A stretch of DNA of 48,896 nucleotides from Anaerohalosphaeraceae bacterium. GTDB lineage: Bacteria > Planctomycetota > Phycisphaerae > Sedimentisphaerales > Anaerohalosphaeraceae. Position 1 is the first letter of the stretch. Every line of letters begins with the position of its first letter. The position numbers were made by a program, and so were the translations under genes. Shown piece by piece: positions 18,756-38,165 of this stretch. The notes under the pieces are model-generated. The model had not been told where the DNA came from. It ran no database searches and saw nothing but the letters and a program-made list of their open reading frames with translations. The stretch is taken from the NCBI GenBank assembly GCA_050309605.1, contig JBNRMN010000062.1, forward strand, positions 1 through 48,896. Reading direction: 5' to 3'.

Positions 18756-19928
18756 ATGAACATTGGCAGGACGTTAAAGATGGGCATGATCGGGGGTGGT
18801 CCGGGCGCTTTTATCGGCGAAGTACACCGCAAGGCCGCCCGCATGGACGGAGGCATTGAGATTGTCGGAGGAGCGTTCGATATTGATCCGAAAAAGTCCA
18901 AACAGATGGGCAAACAACTCAACCTTGACCCCGCACGTGTGTATTCCGATTACAAAGAAATGATTGCCGCCGAGCAGAAACTGCCGGAAGGCGAGCGCAT
19001 GGACTTTGTGTCGGTGTGTACGCCGAACAACTGTCACTTTCCCATGGCCAAAGCCCTGTTGGAGGCCGGGTTTCATGTGATGTGCGAAAAGCCGATGACG
19101 ATCAGTGTCGCTGAGGCCGAGGCGCTTGTGCAGGTCGTCAAAAAGACCAAACGGGTCTTCGGGCTGATGCACAATTACACCGGTTACCCCATGGTCAAAC
19201 TGGCCCGCGATATGGTTAAAAAGGGCGACATTGGCAAGGTACGCAAAATTGTTGTGCAGTATCCGCAGGGCTGGCTCGCAACGGCTCTGGAAAAGGCCGG
19301 CAATCAGCAGGCCTCGTGGCGCACCGATCCCAAACAAAGCGGCGGTTCCGGCTGCGGCGGCGACATCGGTACGCATGCCGAGAATCTGGCCGAGTACATT
19401 ACCGGCCTGAAAATGACCCATCTGTGCGCCGAATTGACCACCTTTGTCAAAGGCCGCAAGCTTGATGACGATGTGAACTGTCTGGTCAAGTTCAACAACG
19501 GCGCACGCGGCGTGCTGCATGCCAGTCAGATTTCCGTGGGCGAGGAAAACAATCTGGCCATTTGGATTTACGGGGAAAAGGGCGGTTTGGAATGGCATCA
19601 GGAGAATCCCAACTATCTGTATGTCAAGAGGATGGGCCAACCCGACCAGACATACAAACGCGGCAATCCCTATGTCGCTGAGTACAGTGCGGCGGCGGGA
19701 CGGACGACGCGGCTGCCCTGCGGCCATCCCGAAGCGTTCATCGAGGCGATGGCGAATATCTATCTCAATTTTGCCGACGCGGTCAGGGCCGACGTACTGA
19801 AGAAAAAGCCCGATCCGCTGGCACTGGATTTTCCGAATGTGCAGGATGGTCTGCGGGGGATGCAATTCCTTGAGACGCTGCTGGCCAGCGCCAAAAGCAG
19901 CCAGAAATGGACGGCATTTAAGAAATAA
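18756..19928 (+). CDS. Gfo/Idh/MocA NAD(P)-dependent oxidoreductase, cytoplasmic
   Basis: GMIGGGPGAFIG, TPNNCH, CEKP and GDIGTH; no signal peptide. Confidence 0.92.
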   Translation: MNIGRTLKMGMIGGGPGAFIGEVHRKAARMDGGIEIVGGAFDIDPKKSKQMGKQLNLDPARVYSDYKEMIAAEQKLPEGERMDFVSVCTPNNCHFPMAKALLEAGFHVMCEKPMTISVAEAEALVQVVKKTKRVFGLMHNYTGYPMVKLARDMVKKGDIGKVRKIVVQYPQGWLATALEKAGNQQASWRTDPKQSGGSGCGGDIGTHAENLAEYITGLKMTHLCAELTTFVKGRKLDDDVNCLVKFNNGARGVLHASQISVGEENNLAIWIYGEKGGLEWHQENPNYLYVKRMGQPDQTYKRGNPYVAEYSAAAGRTTRLPCGHPEAFIEAMANIYLNFADAVRADVLKKKPDPLALDFPNVQDGLRGMQFLETLLASAKSSQKWTAFKK

Positions 19929-19970
19929 CGAGCTGATAACGAACGTTCTATCGATTGGAGATTGACGATT

Positions 19971-20963
19971 ATGGCACGACCTGTAACGCTATTTACCGGA
20001 CAATGGGCGGATTTGCCGCTGGAAGAACTGGCACAAATCATGGCCGGCTTCGGCTACGACGGACTGGAACTGGCCTGCTGGGGCGACCATTTGGATGTGT
20101 TTAAGGCGGCAAAAGATCTTGATTATTGTAAAAAACAAAAAGCCATTCTGGATAAGCATAACCTAAAGTTATTTTCTATCAGCAATCATCTGGCCGGGCA
20201 GCTTGTCTGCGACTTGAACAACGACAGCCGTTCGGATATGTTTGCCCCCGAAGACTGCGCCGGCGATGCCGAGAAAAAACGCGCCTGGGCGGTCGAGGCG
20301 ATGAAAGCCACGGCTCAGGCGGCTAAAAATATGGGCGTGTCGGTGGTCAATGGTTTTACCGGCTCAAGCATCTGGCACTTGCTGTACAGCTTTCCGCCGG
20401 TCTCCGACCAGATGATCGAGGACGGGTTTGCCTATTTTGCCAAGATGTGGACTCCGATTCTGGATGTGTTTGATGAGTGCGGCGTGAAATTTGCGCTTGA
20501 AGTGCATCCGACCGAGATCGCCTTTGACATCGTTACCGCCAAGAAGGCGCTGGAAGCGGTTAAACATCGCAAGACCTTCGGTTTTAATTTCGACCCCAGC
20601 CACCTGCATTGGCAGATGGTTAACCCGGTGCGGTTTCTGCAGGAATTTTCAGACCGGATTTATCACGTTCACATGAAAGACGCCGCCCTGCAGCTTGACG
20701 GCTACAGCGGGATTCTCGGCTCGCATCTGAATTTCGGCAAGCCGAATCGCGGCTGGGATTTTCGTTCGCTGGGGCACGGGGGCGTGGACTTTGAAGAGAT
20801 CATTCGGATACTCAATCAGATCGGCTATCAGGGACCGCTTTCAGTGGAATGGGAAGACAGCGGGATGGATCGGATGCACGGCGCCAAAGAAGCGTGTGAA
20901 TTTGTCAAGAAAGTGGATTTTGCACCGTCACAGGTCGCGTTTGATGCGGCGTTTGACAAATAA
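19971..20963 (+). CDS. Sugar phosphate isomerase/epimerase (AP_endonuc_2 TIM barrel), cytoplasmic
   Basis: GYDGLEL, FALEVHP, NFDPSH, HVHMKD and LSVEWED metal ligands. Confidence 0.9.
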
Positions 20964-21018
20964 ACTGCTGTTGTGCAGTTATGCAACGGTATGATTTCTA
21001 ATGACGAGGATAGAGACG

Positions 21019-22329
21019 ATGGTTCAAAAATATAGTCGCAGAACTTTTTTGAAGCGTACCTCCATAGCCGCGGCCGGGGCGATTGGGTTTCCCTATATCG
21101 TTCAGCCTTCGGCTCTGGGGTTGAATCGAGCCATTGCGCCAAGCAATCGGCTTCAACTTGCCCAGATTGGCTGCGGGGCGCAGGGGTCGGGCAATATGAA
21201 TGGGTTTTTGAACCTGGGGCCTGAGGTTCAGGTGGTCGCTGTCTGTGATGTGGACAGCCGTCATGTCAATAACGCAAAACGGACTGTGGATAATCATTAC
21301 CGTAACCAGGATTGCCGCACGTTTGGTAATTACCGCGAGATGCTTGATCATGTGCCGTTGGACATTGTCAGTCAGGCAACGCCGGATCACTGGCACGCAC
21401 TGATCGCGTTGGACTGTGCTCGAAAGGGCATTGATATGTACGGCGAAAAACCGCTGTCCCGTACCATCGGCGAGGGGCGTCTGATGTGCGATGCGGTCAA
21501 ACGGTATGGCATAATCTGGCAGACCGGCAGTTGGCAGCGTTCGGTCGGGAATTTTCGCCGGGCCGCCGAGCTGGTCATCAACGGACGCATCGGCAAGGTT
21601 GAATATGTCGAAGTGGGGCTTCCCAACGGCAGCCGGGGCAGGCAGGCTCGTCTGCTTTCGGTGCCGGACTATCTGGATTGGGATATGTGGCTGGGGCCGG
21701 CGCCGTGGCGACCCTATCAGGATTTCGGACGCGGCGATTGCCATTGGGATTGGCGCTGGATTCTGGATTATTCCGGCGGTCAACTGACCGACTGGGCGGG
21801 CCATCATGTCGATGTCGCCCACTGGGGATTGGGGTTGGATTACGCCGGTCCGGTGGAGGTGGAAGGTACCGGCGAGTACTCCGAAGACGGCCTATGGGAT
21901 GTGCCTTATGCGTATGAGTTTGTCTGTACTTATGCCGACGGTCTGAAGATGCGCGTCGCAAATTCGTCCAAGCTGCCGCATGGCATGGGAACCTGCTGGT
22001 ATGGCGACCGCGGCTGGATCCATGTGTCGCGCGGCGGACTGAGTGCTTCGGATCCCGCGATATTACAAGAGCGCATCGGGCCGGAGGAAATTCAGCTTTA
22101 CAAGAGCGACCACCATCAGCGCAATTTTGTTGAATGTGTCCGGACACGTCAGGACGCGATTGCCCCGGCGGAAATTGCCCATCGGTCGATTACGGTCGGG
22201 TTTTTAGGTGAAATTGCAATGCTGCTGGGACGGAAACTGCGGTGGGATCCGAAGTCGGAACAATTTGTCAACGATTCCCAGGCGAACCGTTACTTAAGAC
22301 GTGCTTATCGCAGTCCGTGGATGCTTTAG
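21019..22329 (+). CDS. Tat-exported Gfo/Idh/MocA oxidoreductase
   Basis: SRRTFLK twin-arginine motif, IGCGAQG, TPDHWH, EKP, LDWDMWLGPAP and DWAGHHVD. Confidence 0.92.
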   Translation: MVQKYSRRTFLKRTSIAAAGAIGFPYIVQPSALGLNRAIAPSNRLQLAQIGCGAQGSGNMNGFLNLGPEVQVVAVCDVDSRHVNNAKRTVDNHYRNQDCRTFGNYREMLDHVPLDIVSQATPDHWHALIALDCARKGIDMYGEKPLSRTIGEGRLMCDAVKRYGIIWQTGSWQRSVGNFRRAAELVINGRIGKVEYVEVGLPNGSRGRQARLLSVPDYLDWDMWLGPAPWRPYQDFGRGDCHWDWRWILDYSGGQLTDWAGHHVDVAHWGLGLDYAGPVEVEGTGEYSEDGLWDVPYAYEFVCTYADGLKMRVANSSKLPHGMGTCWYGDRGWIHVSRGGLSASDPAILQERIGPEEIQLYKSDHHQRNFVECVRTRQDAIAPAEIAHRSITVGFLGEIAMLLGRKLRWDPKSEQFVNDSQANRYLRRAYRSPWML

Positions 22330-22363
22330 GTGGAACGAGATAGATCCTGAATAGAGGTCAGAG

Positions 22364-25300
22364 ATGAATTTGACAAAAAAAATAATGATGCTTATTGTCG
22401 GGTTTTCCGCTGCGATTATGCCTGCACAGGCGGTCACAGAGGACGAAATCGCCAAAATGCGGCAAGCTATGCCGGATGCACCTGTTGTTCAGCCGGAGCG
22501 CCCGCGGCGAATGCTTGTATTTAATCTCAGCCAGGGATTCAAGCACAGCAGTATTCCGTACTGGGCCAAAGCGCTGGAGATTATGGCAGAAAAGACCGGG
22601 GCCTTCTCGATTGAACACAGCGAGGATTTGGCCGTCTTTACACCCGAAACGCTGAGTCGTTTTGATGCGGTGTGTTTTAATAACACCACCGAGCTGAAGT
22701 TGACAGATGACCAAAAAGAAGCGTTGCTGGCGTTTATTAAAAACGGGAAAGGCATCGTCGGCATCCACGCGGCGACGGACAACTTCAAAGACTGGCCTGA
22801 AGGAATGCATATGATGGGCGGCGTTTTTCAGGGACATCCCTGGACCGCCGGTGGGACGTGGGCAATTAAACTGGACGACCCTGAGCATCCTTTGCTGAAA
22901 CCCTTTGCCGGGAAGGGCTTTAAGGTCAACGACGAAATCTACCGCACCAATTTGCCGTATTATTCACGAGATAAGCAGCGGGTGCTGATGAGCCTGGATA
23001 TGAGCGATCCGGCTACCCGCAACGCCAATGGGGTCACGCCGGAGGACATGGATACGGGGATCACCTGGATTAAGCCGTATGGTCAAGGGCGGCTGTTTTA
23101 TTGTTCGCTCGGTCACAACCATCATCTGACGTGGACCACGCCGATCTTGGAGCATTATCTGGCAGGCATTCAATACGCACTGGGCGATCTGGAAGTGGAT
23201 GATACCCCGCTGGGCCAGCCGGCGCCTGAATTGGATGTCGCGGCGGTGCGGTCGCTGGTCGAAAAGATCAAGGCTTACGATTGGGATAAGTCCCGCGCGG
23301 ATTTGACGGCTCTGCAAAGGCTCATTCGACAATACAGCGCCTTTGATAACCATCTTGTAAGAATTGAGCAGTTGATGCAGCCGCTGCTGGCCAAGGACAC
23401 GAGCCGGGCGGTGAAAGATGTTGCGTGTCGAGAATTAAGCATCATCGGTACAGACATCTCCGTGCCGGCTCTGGCTGCGCTGTTGAATGATCCCGAGACC
23501 GAACATATGGCTCGGTATGCCCTTGAGCGGATTCAGGGGCAAAAGGCCGAAGCTGCATTGCTCGACACACTTCTCCAGACCTCGGATACCGGCACGAAGA
23601 TTGGTTTGATTTCTTCTTTGGGGGCTTGTCGCAGCGGCCCGGCGGTCGGCCCGATTGCCCGACTGGCGGCGGATTCGCACGCTGATACGGCTTATGCGGC
23701 AATTCAGGCGCTCGGCTTGATTGGTACCTCGGAGGCAGCGGCGGCACTGCGGAACCTGCACTCATCATTGGTTTCTGATCGGCGGCGGCCTGTACTGGAT
23801 GCGATGGCGGTCTGTGCGAATCATCTGTCCAAAGACGGAAAGACGGATGAGGCGTTGTCGCTGTATAAGATACTGTACGCCGACGATAACCCTGCTTTGA
23901 TTCGTGTTGCCGGGTTGACAGGTATTGCTCAAACCAGCCCGGATTCGCTTGGCCGTTTGTTGCCGGCGGCGATTATTCAGGATGATGCGGTGTTGCAGGC
24001 CGGAGCGATTCGACTGGTGGCTCAGGTACAGGATACGGCCTTGATCGAGGCGGCTGTGTCGGCACTGTCTGAGCTTTCCGATGCGGCTAAGGTTTCGCTG
24101 CTGGCGGCGCTGGCGTCCAATGGCCACCCTGCCGGACGTCAAGCGGGCCGGGATACGATGACCAGTGCAGATCAAGCAGTGCGGATTGCCGCCTACCGCA
24201 CCCTGGCCGTGACAGGCAACAGCGATGACGTCCTGCCGCTGGCACAGGCGGCGGCAGGAACAACCGACCGCAACGAAAGTCAGGCGGCTCGTGAGGCACT
24301 GTACCAGATACGGGGAGCCGACGTGACTGCTGCGATTGAACGGGGCATTCGTCAAATGAGCGATTCGTCCGGCAGCGATCGAGTCGCGGCTGAATTGATT
24401 CGTGCAATTCCCGAACGCGGCATTACGACGGCCAATTCTTTATTGTTTGAAATGGCGCGGCATTCGAGCGGCCGTGTGGCTCAAGAGGCTGTCCGTTCGC
24501 TTCAGGCGACGGTGACACAAAACGATATGCCCGCTGTTATGCGTCTGCTGGCCGATCGTCCCGGTGCGGCGGTTGAGACCGTTGCGATTGCGGCCGCCGA
24601 GCAGATTTCCGATCACAATCGTCGGGCCAGGGCGCTGTTGGCCGCCCTGGAGACGGTTGAGTCATCGGCTGCCAAGGCGTCGATGATCCGTGTGATCGGC
24701 CGGCTGGGCGATTCCCAGGCTGTCGGTACGATTCGACGTTTGCGAGATTCGTCTGATGATATCGTCAGCCAAGCGGCTTTTCGAGCCATGCTGGAGTGGC
24801 CGGGAATGGACTTTTTTGATGAAATTCAGGAACTGGCCATAAGCGGGCCGGAAGGCACAGATAAAGTGCTTGCCTTTCGAGCCTATATTCGTTTGTTGGC
24901 CGGGGCCAGGAACAAGACCGATGCGCAGATTGTCCAGGACCTGGCCGAGGCAATGACCTTGACCAATCGGGTACAGGAACAGCGGTTGATCCTGGCGGCC
25001 CTGGGCGAACGTGGCACCTTAAGCGCACTGCAATTGGCTCAGCAGTATTTGAACCGTTCTGACCTAAGGGCTGAAGCGGAGGTGGCGGTGACAGGCATTG
25101 CGCAGCGGCTGATGGAACGTGATCCGGAAGCGGCCGCCAATGCGTTACAGGCGGTCGCTGAACAGACCGATAACACGACACTCAGACAACGGGTTCGCAG
25201 GCTTGTCTCACAGGCTGAAAGTCGTCTCGGACATATTCTCGTCTGGCAGATCAGCGGCCCTTACACCCAGGACAATAAAGGACCCGAAGAGCTTTTTGAT

Positions 25301-25702
25301 GTTCCGTTTTTGCCGGAGACAGATCCGGGACAGGCCCAGTGGCAACCGATGTCCGCTTCCGGCGGCCGGGGGAATTTTTGGCTGATGGATTTGAACCAGG
25401 CGATTGGCGGTTCTGATCGTGTTGCGTATGCCCGCACGATAATTGTATCGCCGCAAGAAACACAGGCAAGATTTGAGCTTGGCAGCGATGACGGGGTCAA
25501 GGTCTGGCTTAACGGTCAACTGGTTCACCGAAACAACGCACTGCGTGCGGTTCAGCAGGGCGAGGATAAAGTGGATGTTCAGCTTCGTCGCGGCGAGAAT
25601 GAGGTTCTTCTGAAAATCACGCAGGGCGGCCAGGACTGGGGATTTTGCTTGCGTGTGACCGATCTCGACGGTTCGCCGATGCGCGGCCTTCGTGTCAAAT
25701 AA
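22364..25702 (+). CDS. Exported ThuA-domain plus HEAT-repeat plus C-terminal beta-sandwich protein
   Basis: Signal peptide; ThuA-like GFKHSSI, GIHAATD, GRLFYCSLGH; long Ala/Leu-rich HEAT region; LGSDDGVKVWLNG in a PA14/galactose-binding-like domain. Confidence 0.82.
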   Translation: MNLTKKIMMLIVGFSAAIMPAQAVTEDEIAKMRQAMPDAPVVQPERPRRMLVFNLSQGFKHSSIPYWAKALEIMAEKTGAFSIEHSEDLAVFTPETLSRFDAVCFNNTTELKLTDDQKEALLAFIKNGKGIVGIHAATDNFKDWPEGMHMMGGVFQGHPWTAGGTWAIKLDDPEHPLLKPFAGKGFKVNDEIYRTNLPYYSRDKQRVLMSLDMSDPATRNANGVTPEDMDTGITWIKPYGQGRLFYCSLGHNHHLTWTTPILEHYLAGIQYALGDLEVDDTPLGQPAPELDVAAVRSLVEKIKAYDWDKSRADLTALQRLIRQYSAFDNHLVRIEQLMQPLLAKDTSRAVKDVACRELSIIGTDISVPALAALLNDPETEHMARYALERIQGQKAEAALLDTLLQTSDTGTKIGLISSLGACRSGPAVGPIARLAADSHADTAYAAIQALGLIGTSEAAAALRNLHSSLVSDRRRPVLDAMAVCANHLSKDGKTDEALSLYKILYADDNPALIRVAGLTGIAQTSPDSLGRLLPAAIIQDDAVLQAGAIRLVAQVQDTALIEAAVSALSELSDAAKVSLLAALASNGHPAGRQAGRDTMTSADQAVRIAAYRTLAVTGNSDDVLPLAQAAAGTTDRNESQAAREALYQIRGADVTAAIERGIRQMSDSSGSDRVAAELIRAIPERGITTANSLLFEMARHSSGRVAQEAVRSLQATVTQNDMPAVMRLLADRPGAAVETVAIAAAEQISDHNRRARALLAALETVESSAAKASMIRVIGRLGDSQAVGTIRRLRDSSDDIVSQAAFRAMLEWPGMDFFDEIQELAISGPEGTDKVLAFRAYIRLLAGARNKTDAQIVQDLAEAMTLTNRVQEQRLILAALGERGTLSALQLAQQYLNRSDLRAEAEVAVTGIAQRLMERDPEAAANALQAVAEQTDNTTLRQRVRRLVSQAESRLGHILVWQISGPYTQDNKGPEELFDVPFLPETDPGQAQWQPMSASGGRGNFWLMDLNQAIGGSDRVAYARTIIVSPQETQARFELGSDDGVKVWLNGQLVHRNNALRAVQQGEDKVDVQLRRGENEVLLKITQGGQDWGFCLRVTDLDGSPMRGLRVK

Positions 25703-25741
25703 ATAGTGTAAACAACAAAAATTAACTATGGAGATACAATT

Positions 25742-27112
25742 ATGAAATCCAAGAACCCCCAAACGTTGACACGACGTGATTTTCTCGGTTCGGCAGCGAC
25801 CGGCGCTGCGCTGTTTACTTTTATTCCCGGACGTGTTCTGGGTGCCAACGGGGCAGTCTCGGCCAACAACAAGCTGAATATCGCCGGTGTCGGCGTCGGC
25901 GGGATGGGCAAGAATAATTTAGAGCAAATGCAATCAGAGAATATCGTTGCGCTGTGCGATGTTGATTGGGACTATGCCAAAGGAGTTTTCGAGAAATATC
26001 CCAATGCCAAGCGGTACAAAGATTACCGCAAGATGCTCGATGAGATGGGCAATCAGATTGATGCGGTAGTCATTGCCACGCCGGACCATACGCATGCCGT
26101 GGTGGCGATGGAGTGTATGCGTCGCGGCAAACACGTCTATGTCCAAAAACCGCTGACCAAGACGGTCTATGAGGCGCGTAAGCTCACCGAGGCCGCTCGT
26201 CAATACAAGGTCGTTACCCAGATGGGTAACCAGGGACACAGCGGCGACGGGATTCGCAATATTTGTGAGTGGATTTGGGACGGCGCCATCGGCCAGGTGC
26301 GTGAGGTGCACGCCTGGACGAATCGTCCGGTCTGGCCGCAGGGAATGGCTCGGCCTACAGAGCAAATGGCGGTTCCGGAGACGCTGGACTGGGATCTATG
26401 GATCGGGCCGGCGCCGATGCGCCCTTATCACCGCGCCTATCACCCGTGGGACTGGCGCGCATGGGTGGATTTCGGTACAGGCGCCCTCGGCGATATGGCC
26501 TGCCATGTGATGGATCCGATTTTCTGGGCGCTGAAACTGAAATATCCTGTGGGTGCGCAGGGCAGCTATGTCGGCAACGTGGAAGAGCACTGGAGGAAAA
26601 TCGGTGTGGAAGAATCGTATCCGCTCGGTTCGATCATCCATCTCGATTATCCGGCGCGGGAAGGGATGCCGGCGGTGAAAGTGCATTGGTATGACGGCGG
26701 ACTGATGCCGGAACGCCCGGACGAGCTGGAACACAGCCGGCGGATGGGTGACAGCGACGGCGGCGTGTTGTTTGTCGGCGACAAAGGCAAACTGATGTGC
26801 GGCTGTTACGGGCGTCGTCCGGAGCTGATCCCGTACTCACGAATGCGCGAGTTTCAGCGGCCTGAGCCGACGCTCGAACGCATCAAGACCAGTCATGAGA
26901 TGAACTGGGTCAATGCCTGCAAAGCGGGAACCGAGGCCTCGACGCCGTTTGACTATGCCGGGCCGTTTACGGAAATGGTGCTGATGGGCAATCTGTGTCT
27001 GTTCCGTCCCGGTGAGAAGATCGTATGGGACGGCGACAATATGCAGTGTACAAATATTCCCGAACTGAACCAGTACGTCAACCCCCCGTATCGCGAAGGG
27101 TGGACGCTTTAA
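25742..27112 (+). CDS. Tat-exported Gfo/Idh/MocA oxidoreductase (glycoside 3-dehydrogenase-like)
   Basis: TRRDFLG, GVGGMG, TPDHTH, QKP, TQMGNQG and GALGDMACH. Confidence 0.92.
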   Translation: MKSKNPQTLTRRDFLGSAATGAALFTFIPGRVLGANGAVSANNKLNIAGVGVGGMGKNNLEQMQSENIVALCDVDWDYAKGVFEKYPNAKRYKDYRKMLDEMGNQIDAVVIATPDHTHAVVAMECMRRGKHVYVQKPLTKTVYEARKLTEAARQYKVVTQMGNQGHSGDGIRNICEWIWDGAIGQVREVHAWTNRPVWPQGMARPTEQMAVPETLDWDLWIGPAPMRPYHRAYHPWDWRAWVDFGTGALGDMACHVMDPIFWALKLKYPVGAQGSYVGNVEEHWRKIGVEESYPLGSIIHLDYPAREGMPAVKVHWYDGGLMPERPDELEHSRRMGDSDGGVLFVGDKGKLMCGCYGRRPELIPYSRMREFQRPEPTLERIKTSHEMNWVNACKAGTEASTPFDYAGPFTEMVLMGNLCLFRPGEKIVWDGDNMQCTNIPELNQYVNPPYREGWTL

Positions 27113-27140
27113 GATAATCCTATCCAAGCAGGAGTTTGCC

Positions 27141-28559
27141 ATGACGAAGTTATGTTTGCAAACGGGTGGTATGATGATGGTCTTGACGATGAGTGCGGCG
27201 CTTCAAGCTGAAATGTCCCATCCGGCGACGGATGTCTATGACGGCTGGCGACTGGGTACTCAGGCGTGGTCGTTTAATCGGTTCACATTTTTCGAGGCTG
27301 TCGATAAAACGCGCGAACTGGGGCTGAACTGGATTCAGGCGTATCCCGGCCAACGGGTATCACCGCAGATCGATGCTCAAATGGGATTTGATTTGCCCGG
27401 CGAGATACGTGAGCAGATTAAAGCCAAACTGGCCGAGGCCAATGTGTCCATAGCGGCATTCGGCGTTGTCGGAGTGCCGCGCCAGGAAACGCAGGCCCGG
27501 CGCCTGTTTGAGTTTGCCAAAGCAATGGGTATTGAGGTGATTGTGTCCGAGCCGGCAGAAGATCAGTTTGATTTGATTGATACGTTGTGTCAGGAATACC
27601 AAATCAAGCTGGCGGTTCACAACCATCCCAGACCATCGCACTACTGGAATCCGGATACGGTCTTGAAAGTCGTTGAAGGCCGCAGCAAGTGGCTTGGCGC
27701 GTGTGCTGATGTGGGGCATTGGGTGCGCAGCGGCCTGGATCCGGTCGAATGTCTCAACAAGCTCGAAGGCCGTATTCACGACATTCATATCAAGGAAATT
27801 GATACGAATGTCGGTCACGATGTGGTGTGGGGAACCGGTCAGGGGCGCGTCAAAGGCATTCTTGAAGAATTGCATCGACAGGGTTATAAAGGGACATTTG
27901 CCATTGAATATGAGCATAGTTGGGACAATAATGTGCCGTTGATTCGCCGGAGTGTTGCTTATTTCAATGAAGTGGCCTCATCGCTGAATCCGAGCGGCTG
28001 GAAGGCTGTTTTTAAGTCGGATTTATCCAATGCCGATTTTGAGCCGGAAAGCTGGACGTTTCAGGATGGTGTTCTCGAACTGAAAGGCGGCGGCGACATC
28101 TGGACAAAAAGCCAATACGGCGACTTTATACTGGACTTTGACTTCAAAGTTGATCGTCGCACGAACAGCGGCGTCTTTTTGCGAGCGGCTAACCACGAAT
28201 GGCTGCCGTGGGTCGAAGTTCAAATTGGCGACACCTATGGACAGGATATTTCCCGGCATATATGCGGTGCTTTATTTGACGTTCAAGCGCCGTCTGTCAA
28301 TGCGGTTAAACCGGCCGGCCAATGGAATCGGATGACGATTTGGGCGCAGGGGCCAAAAATCAAAGTCGCTCTGAACAATCGGGTGATTATTGATGTAAAT
28401 CTGGATGACTGGACCGAAGCCGGCAGGAATCCGGACGGTTCACGCAATAAATTCGATATTGCCTACAAAGATTTGCCGCGCAAGGGTTTTCTGGGTTTTC
28501 AGGACCATCGCGACGGCACAAAGGTGTGGTATCGTAATCTGAAAATCAAAGAACTATAA
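27141..28559 (+). CDS. Exported fusion of AP_endonuc_2 sugar isomerase/lyase domain and DUF1080 (3-keto-disaccharide hydrolase/hydratase) domain
   Basis: N-part QAWSFNRF, HNH, DVGHW, HIKE, IEYE; C-part NSGVF, EVQIGD, GQWN, GFQDH..VWYRNLKIKEL. Confidence 0.85.
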   Translation: MTKLCLQTGGMMMVLTMSAALQAEMSHPATDVYDGWRLGTQAWSFNRFTFFEAVDKTRELGLNWIQAYPGQRVSPQIDAQMGFDLPGEIREQIKAKLAEANVSIAAFGVVGVPRQETQARRLFEFAKAMGIEVIVSEPAEDQFDLIDTLCQEYQIKLAVHNHPRPSHYWNPDTVLKVVEGRSKWLGACADVGHWVRSGLDPVECLNKLEGRIHDIHIKEIDTNVGHDVVWGTGQGRVKGILEELHRQGYKGTFAIEYEHSWDNNVPLIRRSVAYFNEVASSLNPSGWKAVFKSDLSNADFEPESWTFQDGVLELKGGGDIWTKSQYGDFILDFDFKVDRRTNSGVFLRAANHEWLPWVEVQIGDTYGQDISRHICGALFDVQAPSVNAVKPAGQWNRMTIWAQGPKIKVALNNRVIIDVNLDDWTEAGRNPDGSRNKFDIAYKDLPRKGFLGFQDHRDGTKVWYRNLKIKEL

Positions 28560-28579
28560 ATGGAAAGGTCTAACTGAAG

Positions 28580-29941
28580 ATGCAAAATGGTTTAAATCGT
28601 CGTGATTTTATGCGTTCCACGGCTGCGATTGGCGCGGGACTGTTCGTCAGCGGCGGCGCTTTGGGTCAGACCGGCGCCAACAAAGACACCCTCAATGTTG
28701 CTCTGATCGGCGCCGGTGAGCAGGGACAGGTCCTCTCGGATGCCATTCTTCGTCTCGGACGCGATTCCGGTATTCGGTTTGTCGCGGTCTGCGACATTTG
28801 GGAGCAGGTCAATCTCAGGCGTGTATCGCGTCGTCTGGATGCCTATAAGGCGTTCGGCCATAAAGGGACGCCCTATGTGGATTACAAGGAAATGCTGGAT
28901 ACCGAAGAAGACCTGGACGCCGTGATTGTGGCGACGCCGGATTTTTGGCACGCCGAGCATACGATTGCGGCATTGGAGAAAGGGTGCCATGTGTATTGCG
29001 AAAAGGAGATGAGCAATACGATCGAAGACGCCCGCCGTATGGTTGAAGCCGCTCGAAAAAGCGGAAAACTGCTTCAAATCGGCCATCAGCGGCGAAGCAA
29101 TCCGCGGTATCTGCACTGTTATGATAAATATATTCGTGAAGCGCAGTTGCTGGGCCGAATCACGACGATCAACGGCCAGTGGAATCGCAGCCGCTCTTCG
29201 TGCGAAGACCTCGGCTGGCCGGACGGAACCGCCATCGATGAGGCCGTGCTTAATAAGTTCGGCTTTAAGGATATGCATCAGTTTCGCAACTGGCGCTGGT
29301 TCAAGGGGTTGGGCGGCGGTCCGATTGTCGATCTGGGAAGCCACCAGATTGATATTTACAGTTGGTTCCTCGATGCCCAGCCGACAAGCGTTATGGCCAG
29401 CGGCGGCATCGACTACTGGAGCGGTCACGAATGGTATGATAACGTGATGGCGATCTATGAATACAAGACCAAGCTCGGTCCGGTTCGTGCGTTTTATCAG
29501 ACGCTGACCACCAACAGCGCCAACGGCTACTTTGAGTCGTTTATGGGCGATAAGGGAACATTGGTGATCTCTGAGTCTGCCAATCGCGGCAGCGTGTACC
29601 GTGAAAACTGGGTTCCGGAAGACGAATGGCAAAAATGGGCAGATCGAGGTTATCTGGTAAAAGTCGAGGGGCTTGCCGCCGCCGACGCCGCCGCCGATGA
29701 GGCCGTGCTGGACGTACGCGAAGGGACGGTTGCCGCTGCTGAATACAGTATTCCTGTGACGATGGATGTGCCGTATCATCAGCCGCATCTGGTCAACTTC
29801 TTTGATGCGATTCGCGGCAAGGCCAAGCTGACCTGCCCGGCGGAAATTGGTTACGAAACTGCTGTTACCGTGCTGAAGGTCAACGAGGCGGTTGAGAAAG
29901 CCTGTCGTTTGGAATTCAAACCGGAAGAATTTCAGGTCTAA
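28580..29941 (+). CDS. Tat-exported Gfo/Idh/MocA oxidoreductase
   Basis: NRRDFMR, IGAGEQG, TPDFWH, CEKEM, GHQRRS and DLGSHQID. Confidence 0.92.
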   Translation: MQNGLNRRDFMRSTAAIGAGLFVSGGALGQTGANKDTLNVALIGAGEQGQVLSDAILRLGRDSGIRFVAVCDIWEQVNLRRVSRRLDAYKAFGHKGTPYVDYKEMLDTEEDLDAVIVATPDFWHAEHTIAALEKGCHVYCEKEMSNTIEDARRMVEAARKSGKLLQIGHQRRSNPRYLHCYDKYIREAQLLGRITTINGQWNRSRSSCEDLGWPDGTAIDEAVLNKFGFKDMHQFRNWRWFKGLGGGPIVDLGSHQIDIYSWFLDAQPTSVMASGGIDYWSGHEWYDNVMAIYEYKTKLGPVRAFYQTLTTNSANGYFESFMGDKGTLVISESANRGSVYRENWVPEDEWQKWADRGYLVKVEGLAAADAAADEAVLDVREGTVAAAEYSIPVTMDVPYHQPHLVNFFDAIRGKAKLTCPAEIGYETAVTVLKVNEAVEKACRLEFKPEEFQV

Positions 29942-29964
29942 TCATCCACGGATGGAGAAGAACA

Positions 29965-31794
29965 TTGAATCGGAACATTCTGATTATCGGGTTGCTTGCC
30001 GTTGCCGGCAGCCTCAGTAGTGCTCAGGACGATGTTGAGCTGATCGGTGACCATCCCGACGGCAGCCGCAGTGTGCCGGTTCATCTGATTGAGCTGTATG
30101 ATGAGGATGGACGACAGATTCGAGCGACGGATCAAGACCCCAAACCGTTCTCGACGCGGCAGACCTGCGGCCAGTGTCACAGTTATGAGACGATCCGTCA
30201 GGGATGGCATTTTAATGCCCATAAGGCCGATGTGCCGGCGGGGCGGTCCGGTGAGCCGTGGGTACTGACGGATTTCAGGGCACGCACCCTGATCCCTGTA
30301 TCGGGACGCGCCTGGCCGGGGACATTCAGGCCGGAACAGATCGGGCTGACGTCCTGGGATTTCATGACTCGCTTTGGGATGCATTTCCCCGGCGGCAGTT
30401 ACGGTGAAATGGAAGCCGAAGACCCCGAACAGGTCATTCGTCAAAACATCAGCGGCACGTATGAAATCAATTGCCTGATGTGCCACCATGCGGATTTTCG
30501 TCAGGATGCCAGCGAAACGGCGATGCAATTGGCACGTCAGAATTATCGATGGGCCGCAGCCGGCGGCAGCGGAAAGGCGATCATCAGCGGCGTGGCGATG
30601 GAACTGTCGAGCTTTTTCGATCCGGAGTTTGACGAAGGCATCAAAACCACCTATCGGGACGGGGTGTTTGATAAGGACAATAAAGTCTTTTTCGACATTG
30701 CCGCCACCCCGCAGGATCGTCAGTGTTATTATTGCCATTCCAACCATGATACGCGGGTCAGCGAATATGAGGAATGGACGCGCGACGAGGATGTCCATTT
30801 GACCTCCGGGATGACGTGTACAGATTGCCATCGCAACGGTTTGGATCACTGGATTGCACGCGGCAATGAAGATGCGCACGGCACGGCCAAAACGCTGTCC
30901 TGCAAGGGGTGTCATCTTCTGGATGATGCCGAGATGATCCCGCAGGCCGGCCGTCTCGGCGCGCCGATGCCGCGTCATGCCGGGATCCCGCCGATTCATT
31001 TCGACAAGATGAACTGCACGGCTTGTCATTCGGGAACATGGCCCGAAGAACAGCCTGGACGATGGCGAACCGCCCGGATTCATCGGCTTGGTCTGCACGA
31101 TAAGCACAAGCAGGATTTGCGTCTTCCGCATATCTATGCCCCCGTTCTGCTCAAGGGCCAGGACGGTAAAATCGGCGCCCATTATCTGATGTGGCCGGCG
31201 TTTTGGGCGACCCTGAAAGATGATGAGCTGGTGCCGATTCCGCCGGAAACGGTTCGAGCGGCGGCGGGCAGGATTCTTTTGGCTGATGTCGAATTGGTTG
31301 ATGACTGGCGGCCGCTGACCGAGGAACAGATCGGCGATGTGCTGACGTTGCTCCGGGGCGAACCGGATCGGAGCGATCCGGTGTACATTTCAGGCGGCCT
31401 GCTGTACCGTCTAAACGCCGATGGATCCGTGCAGTCGCAGGAACATTCCGCGGCGGGGGCGTATGCCTGGCCGATGGCGCACGATGTGCGACCGGCTTCC
31501 CAGTCGCTGGGCGTGCGCGGCTGCGCAGATTGTCATACAACCGACTCGCCGTTTTTCTTTGCCGGAGTGCAGCGGGATACGCCCATTCAGGGCGATAAGC
31601 AATTTGTCCAAATGGTCACACTTCAGGGCATCGATCGGCTCTATATGTGGTTATTTAATGCCTCATTCGTGTTTCGGCCTGTCCTGAAGGTGGTCGCGTT
31701 TACAGCGTGCGGCCTGATCGGGCTGGTGTTGCTGATCTATGGATTGAAAGCCCTGGTCGTGGTCTCCAGGGCCTGTGCACAGGAGGCTGAATAA
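29965..31794 (+). CDS. Membrane-anchored multiheme c-type cytochrome (7 CxxCH motifs)
   Basis: Signal peptide; CGQCH, CLMCH, CYYCH, CTDCH, CKGCH, CTACH, CADCH; C-terminal hydrophobic helix; TTG start after GGAGAAG. Confidence 0.88.
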   Translation: MNRNILIIGLLAVAGSLSSAQDDVELIGDHPDGSRSVPVHLIELYDEDGRQIRATDQDPKPFSTRQTCGQCHSYETIRQGWHFNAHKADVPAGRSGEPWVLTDFRARTLIPVSGRAWPGTFRPEQIGLTSWDFMTRFGMHFPGGSYGEMEAEDPEQVIRQNISGTYEINCLMCHHADFRQDASETAMQLARQNYRWAAAGGSGKAIISGVAMELSSFFDPEFDEGIKTTYRDGVFDKDNKVFFDIAATPQDRQCYYCHSNHDTRVSEYEEWTRDEDVHLTSGMTCTDCHRNGLDHWIARGNEDAHGTAKTLSCKGCHLLDDAEMIPQAGRLGAPMPRHAGIPPIHFDKMNCTACHSGTWPEEQPGRWRTARIHRLGLHDKHKQDLRLPHIYAPVLLKGQDGKIGAHYLMWPAFWATLKDDELVPIPPETVRAAAGRILLADVELVDDWRPLTEEQIGDVLTLLRGEPDRSDPVYISGGLLYRLNADGSVQSQEHSAAGAYAWPMAHDVRPASQSLGVRGCADCHTTDSPFFFAGVQRDTPIQGDKQFVQMVTLQGIDRLYMWLFNASFVFRPVLKVVAFTACGLIGLVLLIYGLKALVVVSRACAQEAE

Positions 31795-32451
31795 ATGTTC
31801 AGAATCATATCGCTTATCGTATTTGCGGCGGTTGTGGGCGGCGTTGTGCTGCATGGTCTGCTGTTCCCTTGTAGTCGGGGACGGCGTTTTACCGGGGGTG
31901 CGATCATCCGAAAAAAAGTGCATTTGTTTACACTGCTGTTTCTGGAGCAGTCGCTCAATTGGGGCGGACGGTTGCGGAAGCTGGCGTTTTTACTGGGCTT
32001 GCTCAGTTTTGCCGTGCTGCTGTTGACCGGTTTTCTGCCCCCGCTGCTGGGCGGACGGCTGGAAGGATACTGGCTGATGCTTCACGCGACATTTGCACCG
32101 ATTTTCATTGCCTGTGCGGCGGTGGTGGTCGTAACCGGCGCCGAGCGGTATCGACTGCTCAAGTACGATGCCGAGAACCTAGCTGATTTGTTGAAAAACC
32201 GAAAAATCAAAAACACTTGCTGGCTGACCGACTGTTCGGCGGCGCCGAAAGCGGGCTTTTGGCTGCTGGCGGCGTTGTCGCTGCCGTTGACGCTGACGAT
32301 GGTCATCAGTATGACCACGCTGTTCGGCACGGAAGGGCAGGAATGGCTTTTTGAGGCCCATCGCTGGAGCGCGCTGGCATTTGCGGTGGTGGCGGTGTTA
32401 ACATTGTATGTTCTGATTCGCAAAGAGATCAGGAAGGATACGCAAATCTAA
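31795..32451 (+). CDS. Cytochrome b-like (FdnI/HyaC-type) integral membrane protein
   Basis: About five hydrophobic segments with His in or next to helices (VLHG, KVHLF, LMLHATF, EAHRWS); starts directly after the cytochrome stop (TAA-ATG). Confidence 0.6.
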   Translation: MFRIISLIVFAAVVGGVVLHGLLFPCSRGRRFTGGAIIRKKVHLFTLLFLEQSLNWGGRLRKLAFLLGLLSFAVLLLTGFLPPLLGGRLEGYWLMLHATFAPIFIACAAVVVVTGAERYRLLKYDAENLADLLKNRKIKNTCWLTDCSAAPKAGFWLLAALSLPLTLTMVISMTTLFGTEGQEWLFEAHRWSALAFAVVAVLTLYVLIRKEIRKDTQI

Positions 32452-32477
32452 TACACCATTTTTAAGGGAGGTTTACT

Positions 32478-33851
32478 ATGGCAAACGAAAGCTTACCGAA
32501 TTATCTGGCGGCGGCAAAACCTAATCCGATGGAAAATCGGGCGCCGTGGTACAAAAATACGGCGCCGTCTTATGCGGGCATTTTTCTGTCTGTGCCGTTT
32601 ATGGCCGGCATGGCCGGTGCGCTTCAGTTCGGCAGTGTATGGGCCGGATTTGTGGGGTTGCTGATTGGGGCGCTGTTCTGTTTTCTGCTGTACTATGTCC
32701 CCGGCATACTCGGTTTCAAAACGGGAATGCCGCTGTATGTGGTCGGCTCGTCAACGTTCGGCACGCAGGGCGGAATTGTGATGCCGGGGTTATTGATGGG
32801 GGCGCTTCAGATCGGTTGGCATGCGGTGTTTACGTTTTCGGCGGCCTCATTTTTTATGCAGGCCATCGGTCGGGACGCCGGGCCTAACTCGGCATTTTTC
32901 TGGCTGATTTGTGCGGTTTGGGGATTGATTTTTGCGTTTGTGGGGGCGGTTGGCATTAGCTGGCTGGGCTGGCTGTCAAGCTGGATTCCCGTCTTTCCTT
33001 TGGCCGCCATTGTGATTGCGGGGTTTGCCAATATGGGCGGCATCGGCAAATTCGAGTCGGTCGCCGACATCGCTCGCTCGGCGGCCATCATTCCCGTCAT
33101 GGGGCTGGGTGCGTTTGCGGCGATACAGGCCGCGGCCGGCTTTTTTGCGACGGCCGGTGCTGCCGGTGCTGATTTTACGATGAACAGTCGTTCTCAGAAA
33201 GACGTGGTGCTGGGCGGATTTTGGGGCATTACGATTGCGGCGCTGGTCGCCGGTACGTTTGCCCTGTTTACGATTGCCGGAGCCGTCGGCAACAATCCGC
33301 AACTGGCGATTCAGCACGGGGTGGGAACGGATAAAATGGCCGGAATTCCGCTGTTTATCAGCTCGCTCGGCGAGGTCGGCGGCTTATCGAAGATCATGTT
33401 CTGGGTGTTCTTGATTGCCTGTATTTGTCCGACGGGTTTTTGTGCGTTTTTGGCGGCCAATTCATTCTCGACGATGTTCCCCAAGCTGCCGCGTACCGGT
33501 ATGACGATGGCAGCCGGCGTCGTGGGCGTGATTCTGGCTGCGACGGGGCTGGCCAACAATCTGGCGGTGTTCTTCGGCTTGATCGGGGCTTCTTTCGGTC
33601 CGATTATCGGCGCCATGACCGCTGACTATATCCGCAGCGGAGGCTGGAGCGGGCCGCGGAAAGGGATTAACTGGGCCGGCTATATCGCTTGGGCTGTGGG
33701 GTTTGTTGTGGGTATCTTTGGTGTCCTTCCAGGCGTCGGATTCAGTTACGGCCTTGAAACGCTCGTCTCGTTCATTCTCGGATTCTCAATCTATCTGCTG
33801 GCCGCGGAAATGGGACTGGAGCCGGAAACGGTATCCTTGGAAAACAAGTAA
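32478..33851 (+). CDS. NCS1/cytosine-permease-family transporter
   Basis: About 12 TMs; GFKTGMPLYVVGSSTFGTQG, QIGWH, ADFTMNSR, SFGPIIGAMTADY; strong RBS AAGGGAGG. Confidence 0.75.
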   Translation: MANESLPNYLAAAKPNPMENRAPWYKNTAPSYAGIFLSVPFMAGMAGALQFGSVWAGFVGLLIGALFCFLLYYVPGILGFKTGMPLYVVGSSTFGTQGGIVMPGLLMGALQIGWHAVFTFSAASFFMQAIGRDAGPNSAFFWLICAVWGLIFAFVGAVGISWLGWLSSWIPVFPLAAIVIAGFANMGGIGKFESVADIARSAAIIPVMGLGAFAAIQAAAGFFATAGAAGADFTMNSRSQKDVVLGGFWGITIAALVAGTFALFTIAGAVGNNPQLAIQHGVGTDKMAGIPLFISSLGEVGGLSKIMFWVFLIACICPTGFCAFLAANSFSTMFPKLPRTGMTMAAGVVGVILAATGLANNLAVFFGLIGASFGPIIGAMTADYIRSGGWSGPRKGINWAGYIAWAVGFVVGIFGVLPGVGFSYGLETLVSFILGFSIYLLAAEMGLEPETVSLENK

Positions 33852-33912
33852 ACCCAACGAGGTTTCGATTTCGTATTCATAAGGTATTATGAATACAGAA
33901 TAAGATGTTTTG

Positions 33913-33956
33913 ACGTCGCGGCTTTCTGGAGGGTTCAGCGGCCGCGACGTTTTTTT
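33913..33956 (+). terminator. Rho-independent terminator ending the oxidoreductase/cytochrome/permease operon
   Basis: acgtcgcggc / gccgcgacgt 10-bp stem followed by a T run. Confidence 0.7.
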
Positions 33957-34010
33957 GTCGGAAGAAAGCCACGGACAATCGATTAGTGAAGGCATGAAAA
34001 AAACCGGAAT

Positions 34011-34038: not shown

Positions 34039-34100
34039 AGTTTCAATCAAATAAGTATAAGAAACAGACAATAATGGTATATAACTGGGAGACAGTCAAA

Positions 34101-37418: not shown

Positions 37419-38165
37419 CTAACAATAGATCATTTTTCTTGTCATTCCGCCGTCAATGATAAAATTCTGGCCGGTGATAAAGCCGGCTTTCTCCGAACAC
37501 AAATAAAGGGCCATTTCGGCGATGTCTTCCGGTTGTCCGACTCGGCCGACCGGGTGCTGAGCGTGATCTCGGTCGGTTAATGTCTCTGCGGGGACGTCCT
37601 GCTGCCATGCGTTTGTAACGATCCAGCCCGGGCTGATGCAGTTGACGCGCACCGGAGCCAGACTCATCGCCAGCGAATGAGTCAGCCCTGCCAATCCGGC
37701 CTTGGAGGCTGAATAGGCCTCTGTGTGCGGCTCACTCATCAACGCTCGCGTTGAGGCGATCAGTACGATGGCGCCGGCGGTTTTTTTGAGGAAAGCAGCG
37801 GCGTGCTTGGCACACAAAAACGCGCCGGACAGGTTGACATTCAAAACCTGCTGCCATTGATTGTAGTCAAGTTGCTCAATCGGGCGATTGTCAGCGATAG
37901 CGGCATTATGCACGATCGCATCCAGACGACCGGACCATTGAACCGCCTGTCGTATGACCGCTTCGACATCGGCTTCCATCGCGACATCAGTCTGTACAAA
38001 TAAAGCCCGCTCGGTCTGTTTCAATCTGTCCAAGGCGAAAGTTTTTAACTGTCGGTTTTTCTCGGCCAGTACGACAGAGGCTCCGGCCTGAATAAAACGA
38101 TATGCGATGCACAACCCAATGCCTCGGCCGGCGCCTGTGATGAGAATTGTTTTTCCGGCAACCAT
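37419..38165 (-). CDS. Short-chain dehydrogenase/reductase
   Basis: TGAGRGIG, HNAA, YSASK, VNCISPG, DGG. Confidence 0.93.
   Translation of the reverse strand: MVAGKTILITGAGRGIGLCIAYRFIQAGASVVLAEKNRQLKTFALDRLKQTERALFVQTDVAMEADVEAVIRQAVQWSGRLDAIVHNAAIADNRPIEQLDYNQWQQVLNVNLSGAFLCAKHAAAFLKKTAGAIVLIASTRALMSEPHTEAYSASKAGLAGLTHSLAMSLAPVRVNCISPGWIVTNAWQQDVPAETLTDRDHAQHPVGRVGQPEDIAEMALYLCSEKAGFITGQNFIIDGGMTRKMIYC

Follow-up and report, generated by a model that had tools for sequence, protein, structure and literature searches.

We analysed a 48,896-nucleotide (nt) contig, JBNRMN010000062.1, of an Anaerohalosphaeraceae bacterium (assembly GCA_050309605.1), which is a strictly anaerobic member of the Phycisphaerae (Planctomycetota); this whole stretch of DNA is called the window below. 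It carries a run of ten genes (g1–g10, positions 18756–33851, + strand) followed by two more, d1 and d2 (Table 1). Our subject is a module within this set, in which a dehydrogenase of the Gfo/Idh/MocA (GFO) family that bears a twin-arginine translocation (Tat) signal, g7, stands directly before a c-type cytochrome with seven hemes, g8, and a small membrane protein, g9, with an ApbE-type flavin transferase domain close behind in d2. An earlier note on this DNA, made from the sequence alone, had described the ten genes as co-oriented, tightly spaced and closed by one terminator, and had named their families. This observation was confirmed: gaps range from 0 to 39 nt (from g1 to g10: 33, 37, 34, 39, 28, 20, 23, 0 and 26 nt), and Pfam (gathering scores) and NCBIfam (curated cut-offs) bore out every family that it listed. 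The terminator-like hairpin behind g10, with its T7 tract, folds at −41.6 kcal/mol (z −3.98; 0 of 200 shuffles folded as well) and was missed by a simple terminator scan because its loop is long. The unit does not end there, since its conserved part runs on to position 37412 and includes the ApbE paralogue, kept in 40 of 51 related loci.

Table 1. Features of the window that are discussed in the text, with positions, strand and the basis of each assignment.
Feature	Positions	Strand	Description	Basis
AraC	17376..18428	-	AraC-family regulator (cupin + helix-turn-helix), divergent from the operon	Pfam
g1	18756..19928	+	Gfo/Idh/MocA (GFO) protein, cytoplasmic, no signal peptide	Pfam, NCBIfam
g2	19962..20963	+	Xylose-isomerase-like TIM barrel (AP_endonuc_2), cytoplasmic	PF01261 139.7 bits
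g3	21001..22329	+	Tat-exported GFO oxidoreductase	SRRTFLK motif; TIGR01409 18.3 bits (cut-off 16.7)
g4	22364..25702	+	Secreted ThuA + HEAT-repeat protein	PF06283 134 bits (cut-off 33.4); HEAT_2 84.9 bits
g5	25742..27112	+	Tat-exported glycoside 3-dehydrogenase-like GFO (BT2158 type)	TRRDFLG motif, NF058561, PDB match
g6	27141..28559	+	Secreted fusion of TIM barrel and 3-keto-disaccharide hydrolase (3keto-disac_hyd/DUF1080)	PF01261 + PF06439
g7	28580..29941	+	Tat-exported GFO	Pfam, NRRDFMR motif, synteny
g8	29965..31794	+	Seven-heme c-type cytochrome, 609 amino acids (aa), signal peptide, C-terminal transmembrane (TM) anchor	CxxCH motifs
g9	31795..32451	+	Membrane protein, 218 aa, five helices, FdnI/CybB-like four-helix core	ATG abuts g8 stop codon
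g10	32478..33851	+	NCS1-like permease (Transp_cyt_pur)	PF02133 38 bits (cut-off 23.5)
Terminator	33912..33958	+	Intrinsic-terminator-like hairpin (12 + 5 bp), then T7	Folding
d1	34074..34877	+	Lipoprotein (lipobox AFGC), Ser/Thr/Pro-rich linker, F5/8-type-C (discoidin) domain	
d2	34884..37412	+	Fusion of GT-C membrane glycosyltransferase and ApbE FAD:protein FMN transferase	
GT2	38179..38961	-	GT2 glycosyltransferase, loosely attached	Pfam

The CxxCH motifs of g8 are at residues 68, 170, 254, 285, 313, 351 and 520. All seven are invariant in 25 orthologues (g7 was likewise compared over 25 and g9 over 24) and in three homologues of about 30% identity, and eight further invariant histidines, possible distal ligands, are kept even at that distance. 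Judged by these residues, the protein fits seven bis-His electron-transfer hemes; its motifs, export signal and sufficient distal ligands place it among the multiheme c-type cytochromes. A non-heme, beta-rich domain (about residues 390–500) is the sole confident part of its AlphaFold model, and residues 560–609, which hold the TM helix, contain no histidine. Against the PDB, the model returned nothing at E ≤ 0.001 with Foldseek and a best Z of 3.4 in a wide VIA-align comparison, and the g8 profile matched only NrfA heme motifs among PDB sequences (E 0.002–0.004), giving no solved relative; no NCBIfam model matched above E 1e-5. The family comprises 503 clusters (50% identity) at E ≤ 1e-30, with homologues in Phycisphaerae, Sedimentisphaerales and Anaerohalosphaeraceae among them.

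An alignment of 12 g8 homologues yielded 263 confirmed relatives (contigs, one genome per species), of which the best 80, as 79 loci, formed the synteny set; 16 hand-picked loci were used in addition overall. Neighbour counts rest on tblastn, with which the window proteins were mapped onto the loci (threshold 1e-8 for g9), and are given over 70 loci with enough flank (at least 1.5 kb upstream), 47 loci for g1–g6 and 51 for genes downstream. In 67/70 loci, the gene directly upstream of the cytochrome encodes a GFO of the g7 type; the exceptions are L035, L078 and L076, the last with one open reading frame (ORF) in between. Directly downstream, g9 was detected in 56/70, and most of the others appear at a blastp threshold of 1e-5. 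Within 8 kb downstream, d1 and the ApbE part of d2 were each found in 40/51 loci and the GT-C part in 38/51. The remaining genes are more variable: g1 occurs upstream of the cytochrome in 5/47 loci, and g2, g3, g4, g5 and g6 were found in 13, 24, 33, 38 and 39 of the 47, respectively, g5 often in duplicate, while a g10-type permease is present in 24/51, its slot often being taken by an MFS_1 transporter of about 390 aa. The cytochrome pair is tied to g7 and not to exported dehydrogenases in general. The earlier note had linked the exported dehydrogenases as a group to the cytochromes, which holds for g7 and fails for g3, g5 and the other variable members of g1–g6; the check that it proposed, whether cytochrome homologues usually occur without these oxidoreductases, came out in favour of the link.

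GFO, ApbE and cytochrome remain together as a set in four or more gene orders and in relatives with as little as about 30% identity. Two loci recorded as Verrucomicrobia (L041 and L073) have the order d1–d2–g7–g8–g9, and four others (L038, L048, L059 and L069) have g7–g8(–g9)–ApbE without d1 or the GT-C domain; by their records, L069 belongs to the Omnitrophota, L076 to the Calditrichia and L067 to the Deferribacteres. We also fetched 12 distant loci from the tail of g8 profile matches in 401 Planctomycetota genomes. Among these, L086, L087, L088 and L091, whose cytochromes are about 30% identical, each have a Tat-exported GFO and an ApbE lipoprotein flanking a 7-CxxCH cytochrome with a C-terminal TM helix, and in L086 a small two-His membrane protein follows the cytochrome. 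A GFO adjoins the cytochrome in L084 and L085 and lies 8 kb away in L094; L083 has other GFOs and a ThuA protein. Two of the distant loci also carry a gene with an FGE-sulfatase domain directly upstream of, and overlapping, the seven-heme cytochrome gene (L086:7910-9142 and L091:8261-9418, both +).

Across the same 401 genomes, matches to profiles of g8 and g7 (the latter at E ≤ 1e-90) were compared. A strong full-length cytochrome match occurs in 18 genomes, followed by a tail of distant ones, and g7 matches in 21, including 16 of those 18; one of the two misses is a 69%-complete genome and the other an assembly in 920 contigs. In 15 of the 16 genomes with both, g7 and the cytochrome lie within 1.3 kb of each other.

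From its sequence, g7 looks like an active, nicotinamide adenine dinucleotide (NAD)-preferring sugar dehydrogenase. GxGxxG, Asp72, the EK(E) motif, Lys142 and Asp251/His255 are conserved in its orthologues, and R7, R8 and F10 of its Tat motif are invariant; the Pfam TAT_signal score is 18.8 bits, below the cut-off of 22.7, and among g3, g5 and g7 the TIGR01409 Tat model is passed by g3 alone. Like g1, g3 and g5, it matches both the PF01408 Rossmann N-domain (83.6, 44.2, 75.1 and 77 bits for g1, g3, g5 and g7; cut-off 24) and the GFO C-domain, which makes all four members of the Gfo/Idh/MocA family. Its best PDB match is the C-glycoside 3-oxidoreductase DgpA (E 8e-23, Rossmann part only), and the Zymomonas glucose-fructose oxidoreductase structures (1OFG, 1H6A and others) match at E 4e-14 to 8e-14. 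With 81 bits over the N-terminal 263 positions only, g7 falls outside the BT_2158-type model. Two compost runs labelled 'transcriptomic' contained short zero-mismatch contigs only (17 and 31), uncovered parts being uninformative; one of the two is probably DNA. In a compost RNA library, a 312-nt contig with 0 mismatches spans the g7 stop and the g8 start (29719–30030), which is a weak hint of expression. A 704-aa ORF (P0371) also points to the linkage of g7 and ApbE: it combines an ApbE domain with a complete GFO of the g7 type (31% identity, E 3e-53), whose Tat motif is internal. Either the fusion is real, or two neighbouring genes were read as one because no stop was called.

The ApbE domain of d2 (about 36558–37349) belongs to its family: it scores 193.8 and 197.5 bits with PF02424 over profile positions 1–262 of 266. 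The N-terminal domain matches TIGR03663 (Agl23/PMT-type GT-C) with 179.8 bits (cut-off 126.25) over positions 4–434 of 435, and the fused form is common in Planctomycetota. Because the genome has a second, canonical ApbE elsewhere, the copy in d2 is a dedicated one. The orthologues showed no conserved flavinylation site. Speculative candidates for a flavin site are Thr179 of g9, in an FGTxGQ loop that is about 90% conserved, and Thr369 of g8. A site near residue 208 of g8 was considered and dropped: a few orthologues have SGST or TGAS there, and the window copy has SGVA. The GT2 glycosyltransferase beyond d2 possibly works with the GT-C domain as its polyprenyl-phosphate-sugar synthase. In 18/37 loci, a homologue follows ApbE at a distance of no more than 4.5 kb, and in L102 a GT2 gene directly precedes that of the GT-C protein, an order seen where a lipid-linked sugar donor is paired with its transferase. 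Two other observations concern the surroundings of ApbE: the SDR gene behind d2 (window 37419-38165, -) recurs in 1/37 loci, and a 578-aa protein, P0374, joins an FGE-sulfatase domain to ApbE.

The model of g9 is good (predicted local distance difference test score (pLDDT) 86.9) and matches FdnI with Z 11.8 (root-mean-square deviation 3.3 Å over 157 residues), CybB with Z 10.2 and HyaC with Z 8.7; Foldseek also ranks FdnI first, with a probability of 1.0 but an E value of 0.07. PF01292 occurs in 16% of the members among Atlas look-alikes of g9. By the positive-inside rule, His97 and His189 would lie near the periplasmic ends of modelled helices 3 and 5, a position that corresponds to FdnI's outer heme; the ligand pair for a second heme is missing. 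The four conserved histidines needed for two b hemes, as in b561 or Ni_hydr_CYTB proteins, are absent, and His20 is found in 17 of 24 orthologue rows. Since only two histidines are invariant, g9 is probably a one-heme b-type cytochrome anchor and not a transmembrane diheme conduit. The cytochrome b proposed in the earlier note survives in reduced form, with what may be an FdnI-like fold and the look of a quinone-site b-type protein, and probably with one heme.

The genome (3.4 Mb, 99.7% complete) contains three ORFs with at least two CxxCH motifs, namely g8 and an NrfH/NrfA pair identified with Pfam, which makes g8 one of very few c-type cytochromes of this fermentative anaerobe. Together with the invariance of the seven motifs in g8, this scarcity speaks against their having arisen by chance. 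A genome search found no cytochrome bd and no heme-copper oxidase; it did find a cytochrome c maturation gene, three RnfD/NqrB-type genes and a MenA-type prenyltransferase gene adjoining one for a UbiE/MenG methyltransferase. The NrfH–NrfA genes are at G000:C9:26457-28467 (L095:3467-5471), and a gene for a fumarase C-terminal domain adjoins them. A Succ_DH_flav_C match was rejected as a fumarate reductase operon, because the genes around it are unrelated; the protein resembles a flavoprotein of the aspartate-oxidase type. For the link to the quinone pool made in the earlier note, MenA, MenG and the menaquinol-dependent NrfHA speak in favour, with menaquinone as the putative acceptor.

The cluster is best explained as a sugar-inducible operon of the 3-keto-glycoside type, and its genes outside the module are consistent with the 3-keto route in the literature. 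The product of g5 reaches 620.5 bits over 435/487 positions of the BT_2158 model NF058561 (below the equivalog cut-off of 750) and has close homologues of known structure in the BT2158-type glycoside 3-dehydrogenases 8TDF/8TDH (E 1e-140). The C-terminal half of g6 matches PF06439 with 128.5 bits (cut-off 26.8). A Sec-type signal precedes g4, whose sequence contains no CxxCH heme motif; g1 matches the LevoglcsnDh model weakly (126.8 bits, cut-off 650), and g10 scores 38.5 bits with TIGR00800, under its cut-off of 353.1. A homologue of the divergent AraC regulator (77–79% identity) adjoins g1 in L011 and L061. The neighbourhood is otherwise catabolic, with DUF1080 proteins, TIM barrels, transporters, AraC regulators and, in relatives, an FGGY kinase and an isomerase.

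Several nearby features are recorded here for completeness. Just upstream of the divergent AraC gene, the window encodes a regulator with a PBP-like sugar sensor domain and an AraC helix-turn-helix (16117-17268, +). Some relatives, such as L027 (12608-15461) and L056 (12804-15573), have two extra genes separating g9 from the permease, one for an isomerase-like protein with weak AraA/fucose-isomerase matches and one for an FGGY sugar kinase; this insertion hints at the kind of sugar imported. Further downstream in the window (39206-43448, +) are a sodium:solute symporter (SSF; 678 aa), a GHMP-type kinase and an endonuclease/exonuclease/phosphatase-family protein, and SSF and GHMP homologues are near the module in 10/37 loci each. 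On the - strand lie a 445-aa protein of unusual architecture, with TPR repeats and two RNA polymerase alpha C-terminal domains (11662-12999; PF03118, 145.7 bits), and a single 1230-aa SecD/SecF fusion protein (5021-8713).

Membrane-bound sugar dehydrogenases that use FAD or pyrroloquinoline quinone (PQQ) and have heme c subunits are an established type. With the LacABC/ThuAB systems (PMC8121099, available excerpts), our module would share the oxidation of sugar hydroxyls in the periplasm and the passage of electrons to c-type heme and the respiratory chain, and g4 has a ThuA domain. By description, both LacABC/ThuAB and the FAD/PQQ enzymes are set apart by a primary cofactor that is FAD or PQQ and by subunits with one to three hemes. 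In our module, a GFO that binds nicotinamide takes the place of the primary enzyme, seven hemes sit in a cytochrome that brings a TM anchor of its own, and a flavin, if any, would come from ApbE. The catabolic half of the cluster is a member-level relative of the Bacteroides thetaiotaomicron BT2156–BT2159 system, with which it shares a Tat-exported GFO, a DUF1080 hydrolase, a xylose-isomerase-like TIM barrel, a further GFO and the periplasmic location. In the available excerpts of its description, that cluster contains no cytochrome, cytochrome b or ApbE, and recycling of the cofactor by a second sugar is proposed (PMC8121099); the same excerpts state that the electron acceptor of BT2158 was not known to the authors, who contrasted the enzyme with the cytochrome-c-dependent LacABC/ThuAB. 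In our locus, by contrast, a fourth GFO type, g7, distant from solved GFOs, is genetically tied to a cytochrome of seven hemes, to a b-type anchor and to ApbE. Zymomonas glucose-fructose oxidoreductase is likewise a Tat-exported GFO, with tightly bound NADP in the periplasm (PMC8121099, in excerpt); there, reduction of a second sugar regenerates the cofactor, and redox partners are absent.

For the cytochrome pair, the nearest architecture is that of Geobacter sulfurreducens CbcBA, in which a seven-heme c subunit with a C-terminal TM helix is likewise paired with a b-type membrane subunit. According to the parts of the preprint available (bioRxiv 10.1101/2021.04.15.440034), CbcBA is thought to link menaquinone with the periplasm and oxidises quinol for metal reduction, and CbcB is diheme, with three histidines of its own and a fourth from the TM helix of CbcA; g9 has two invariant histidines and the g8 helix supplies none. 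The same parts name no dehydrogenase or ApbE partner of CbcBA, and the likeness to g8–g9 is one of description, not of sequence. The module also resembles ApbE-dependent extracytosolic systems, in which apbE clusters with membrane b-type cytochromes and periplasmic redox proteins; in the available sections of Huang et al. (2024, PMC11334425), such membrane cytochromes (MsrQ-, PepSY- and DUF4405-like) rest on few conserved histidines. In known ApbE substrates, as listed in the sections available, a motif resembling [S/T]GA[S/T] lies within a domain of the FMN-bind, NqrB/RnfD, DUF2271, flavodoxin-like or FMN_red kind; the cluster has none of these. A term search of the available part of Meheust et al. 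(2021, PMC8238504) returned no mention of multiheme cytochromes, Planctomycetes or glycosyltransferases. The open-access literature that we searched contains no description of a GFO–multiheme–ApbE module, in agreement with the earlier note, which knew of no described system with this coupling.

We propose that the module is a membrane-anchored periplasmic sugar dehydrogenase whose bound NAD(H) is re-oxidised via a flavin that ApbE supplies, the seven c hemes of g8 and a single b heme towards menaquinone; we consider the chances of this functional coupling evenly balanced, and have less confidence in any one of its steps. In the operon as a whole, exported GFO dehydrogenases with bound NAD(P) (g5 and its paralogues) would oxidise glycosides, the TIM-barrel and DUF1080 enzymes (g6) would cleave the keto products, and the permease g10 would import the products for the cytoplasmic g1 and g2 to finish their breakdown. 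NAD(P)H bound to a GFO cannot leave the enzyme, and its reduction of hemes is too slow without a two-electron/one-electron converter; if the converter is a flavin, a dedicated ApbE beside dehydrogenase and cytochrome is to be expected. In g7, which would oxidise a sugar as part of a physical complex with the cytochromes, bound NAD(P)H may thus be re-oxidised by a flavin that the ApbE of d2 provides or attaches. Single electrons would then pass through the seven c hemes of g8 to the b heme of g9 (His97/His189), near the periplasmic face, and on to menaquinone, which in this genome could be drained by the NrfHA nitrite reductase. Transfer from NADH (−320 mV) to menaquinone (−74 mV) is downhill and the reverse uphill, so flow would run from sugar to menaquinone. 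The products of d1, the GT-C domain and the often-adjacent GT2 may be helpers in maturation or envelope glycosylation. The module is best called a kind of membrane-bound periplasmic sugar dehydrogenase whose parts are an enzyme that uses nicotinamide, a heme wire of its own and a flavin transferase. Whether it amounts to a new class of respiratory dehydrogenase, with a nicotinoprotein GFO, a flavin placed at a non-canonical site by a dedicated ApbE, and a seven-heme wire and one-heme b anchor leading into the quinone pool, is a more tentative matter, and we regard that fuller claim as possible but doubtful. As for the transfer of electrons from an exported GFO through the cytochromes, suggested in the earlier note, the synteny with g7 argues for it and the path is our proposal; that interpretation is, overall, partly supported.

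A number of observations weigh against this proposal. The canonical [S/T]GA[S/T] motif is present in 0 of the 12 cluster proteins apart from the cytoplasmic g2 (none in g3–g10, d1 or d2), and in related loci it occurs in 0/49 d1, 1/81 g7, 7/79 g8 (at non-conserved positions) and 2/58 g9 proteins. For g8, AlphaFold gave a model of low quality, with a mean pLDDT of 55. The score of g9 with Ni_hydr_CYTB (PF01292), 22.9 bits, is below the cut-off of 30.1; of the four histidines of the window copy, His97 and His189 alone are invariant, and Z values below 13, as in all its fold matches, can reflect a generic arrangement of helical bundles. DNA carry-over is possible in RNA libraries, and the DNA that the compost libraries may contain weakens the hint of g7–g8 expression. 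Neither MenB nor MqnA was found in the genome, which leaves quinone synthesis incomplete on paper. NrfHA was rejected as a conserved sink: NrfA is present in 5 of the 18 cytochrome genomes, 3 others giving partial-profile matches, and both genomes of the same genus lack it. Both GFO and ApbE are kept beside the cytochrome in only 4 of the 12 distant loci, with a GFO in 2 more; L089, L090, L092 and L093, which are short contigs or partial matches, show neither. In G269 the cytochrome sits with g9-like, d1 and d2 genes, and the best g7 match is 2 Mb away. Conversely, in G258 and G161 (L101 and L102), g7 is followed by d1, GT-C and ApbE, without g8 or g9. Because these two loci keep g7–d1–d2 without the cytochrome, the link of g7 to ApbE and d1 is at least as old as its link to the cytochrome. 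Here a 171–175-aa membrane protein overlaps or abuts the g7 start (L101:9778-10293, -; L102:4528-5055, +), one copy with a weak, below-cut-off match to MauE (DoxX clan; E 3e-4), and it may be an alternative membrane partner of the g7-type dehydrogenase.

Some of these points would be expected if the sugar pathway were redox-neutral, in the manner of BT2156–2159, and g8–g9 were an independent CbcBA-like menaquinol:periplasm oxidoreductase, only co-regulated and disposing of electrons to acceptors that are soluble or extracellular. Geobacter CbcA/CbcB, with the same architecture (bioRxiv 10.1101/2021.04.15.440034, parts available), and the sugar-to-sugar recycling proposed for BT2158 (Liu et al. 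2021, PMC8121099, in excerpt) provide precedents for its two halves, g7 does occur without the cytochrome and the cytochrome without an adjacent g7, and the missing flavin acceptor motif needs no explanation. Co-regulation alone, however, accounts poorly for a g7 that adjoins the cytochrome in 67/70 loci and in several gene orders while other catabolic genes vary, and it leaves the link to ApbE unexplained. The genome has no outer-membrane or further multiheme cytochromes beyond NrfH/NrfA that could take the electrons further, g9 has no second heme pair of the CbcB type, and the TM helix of g8 does not have the histidine of CbcA. We consider this arrangement unlikely, though it deserves more weight than the two that follow.

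Electrons might instead run the other way, from menaquinol or a cytoplasmic donor through g9 and g8 to g7 or another periplasmic enzyme, with keto-sugars or unsaturated elimination products as terminal acceptors. Such a built-in acceptor would be useful to fermenters without oxidases, many of whose cytochrome-bearing relatives also have no NrfA, and the three RnfD/NqrB-type genes could feed the membrane. Yet the step from menaquinol (−74 mV) to NAD+ (−320 mV) runs uphill, as does one to a ketone/alcohol couple, every visible heme looks bis-His, a pattern suited to electron transfer and not to catalysis, and the GFO fold is not that of an ene-reductase; this direction strikes us as quite improbable. 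An equally slim chance attaches to g7, d1, d2 and the nearby GT2 forming a set that modifies envelope glycoconjugates, in which they would be the sugar oxidoreductase, the lectin-like lipoprotein, the GT-C transferase and the source of a lipid-linked sugar donor, respectively, the cytochrome pair serving some other need and the link to catabolism being incidental. The loci with g7–d1–d2 and no cytochrome (L101 and L102), the placing of GT2 just before the GT-C gene in L102 and beyond d2 in 18/37 loci, and the Ser/Thr/Pro-rich linker of d1, of a kind modified by GT-C mannosyltransferases, are all in keeping with it; the neighbourhood, however, is otherwise catabolic, the distant clusters keep GFO, ApbE and cytochrome and not d1 or the GT-C domain, and d1 and d2 stand behind a terminator, as is often so for accessory or maturation genes.

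Glycan breakdown by NAD-dependent glycoside 3-dehydrogenases in the periplasm is now seen as a widespread route. These enzymes cannot release their cofactor, and its re-oxidation is a recognised gap in knowledge, for which Liu et al. (2021; PMC8121099, in the excerpts available) could only propose a second sugar, itself unidentified. The joining of g7, ApbE and cytochrome offers a concrete, testable answer for a large uncharacterised family that is found in abundant anaerobic polysaccharide degraders, and at least one related locus (L021) is recorded from a strain and not a metagenome-assembled genome, so that experiments may be possible. If our proposal is right, it would explain the re-oxidation of these enzymes, add a new electron entry point to anaerobic respiratory chains, and reveal either a new class of ApbE substrate or a non-canonical site. 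The module would also mark, in sediments, digesters and compost, where fermentation receives 'respiratory help'. On the more tentative claim of a new class of respiratory dehydrogenase, strictly fermentative Planctomycetota, and scattered Verrucomicrobiota, Calditrichota and Omnitrophota, could burn sugars outside the cytoplasm.

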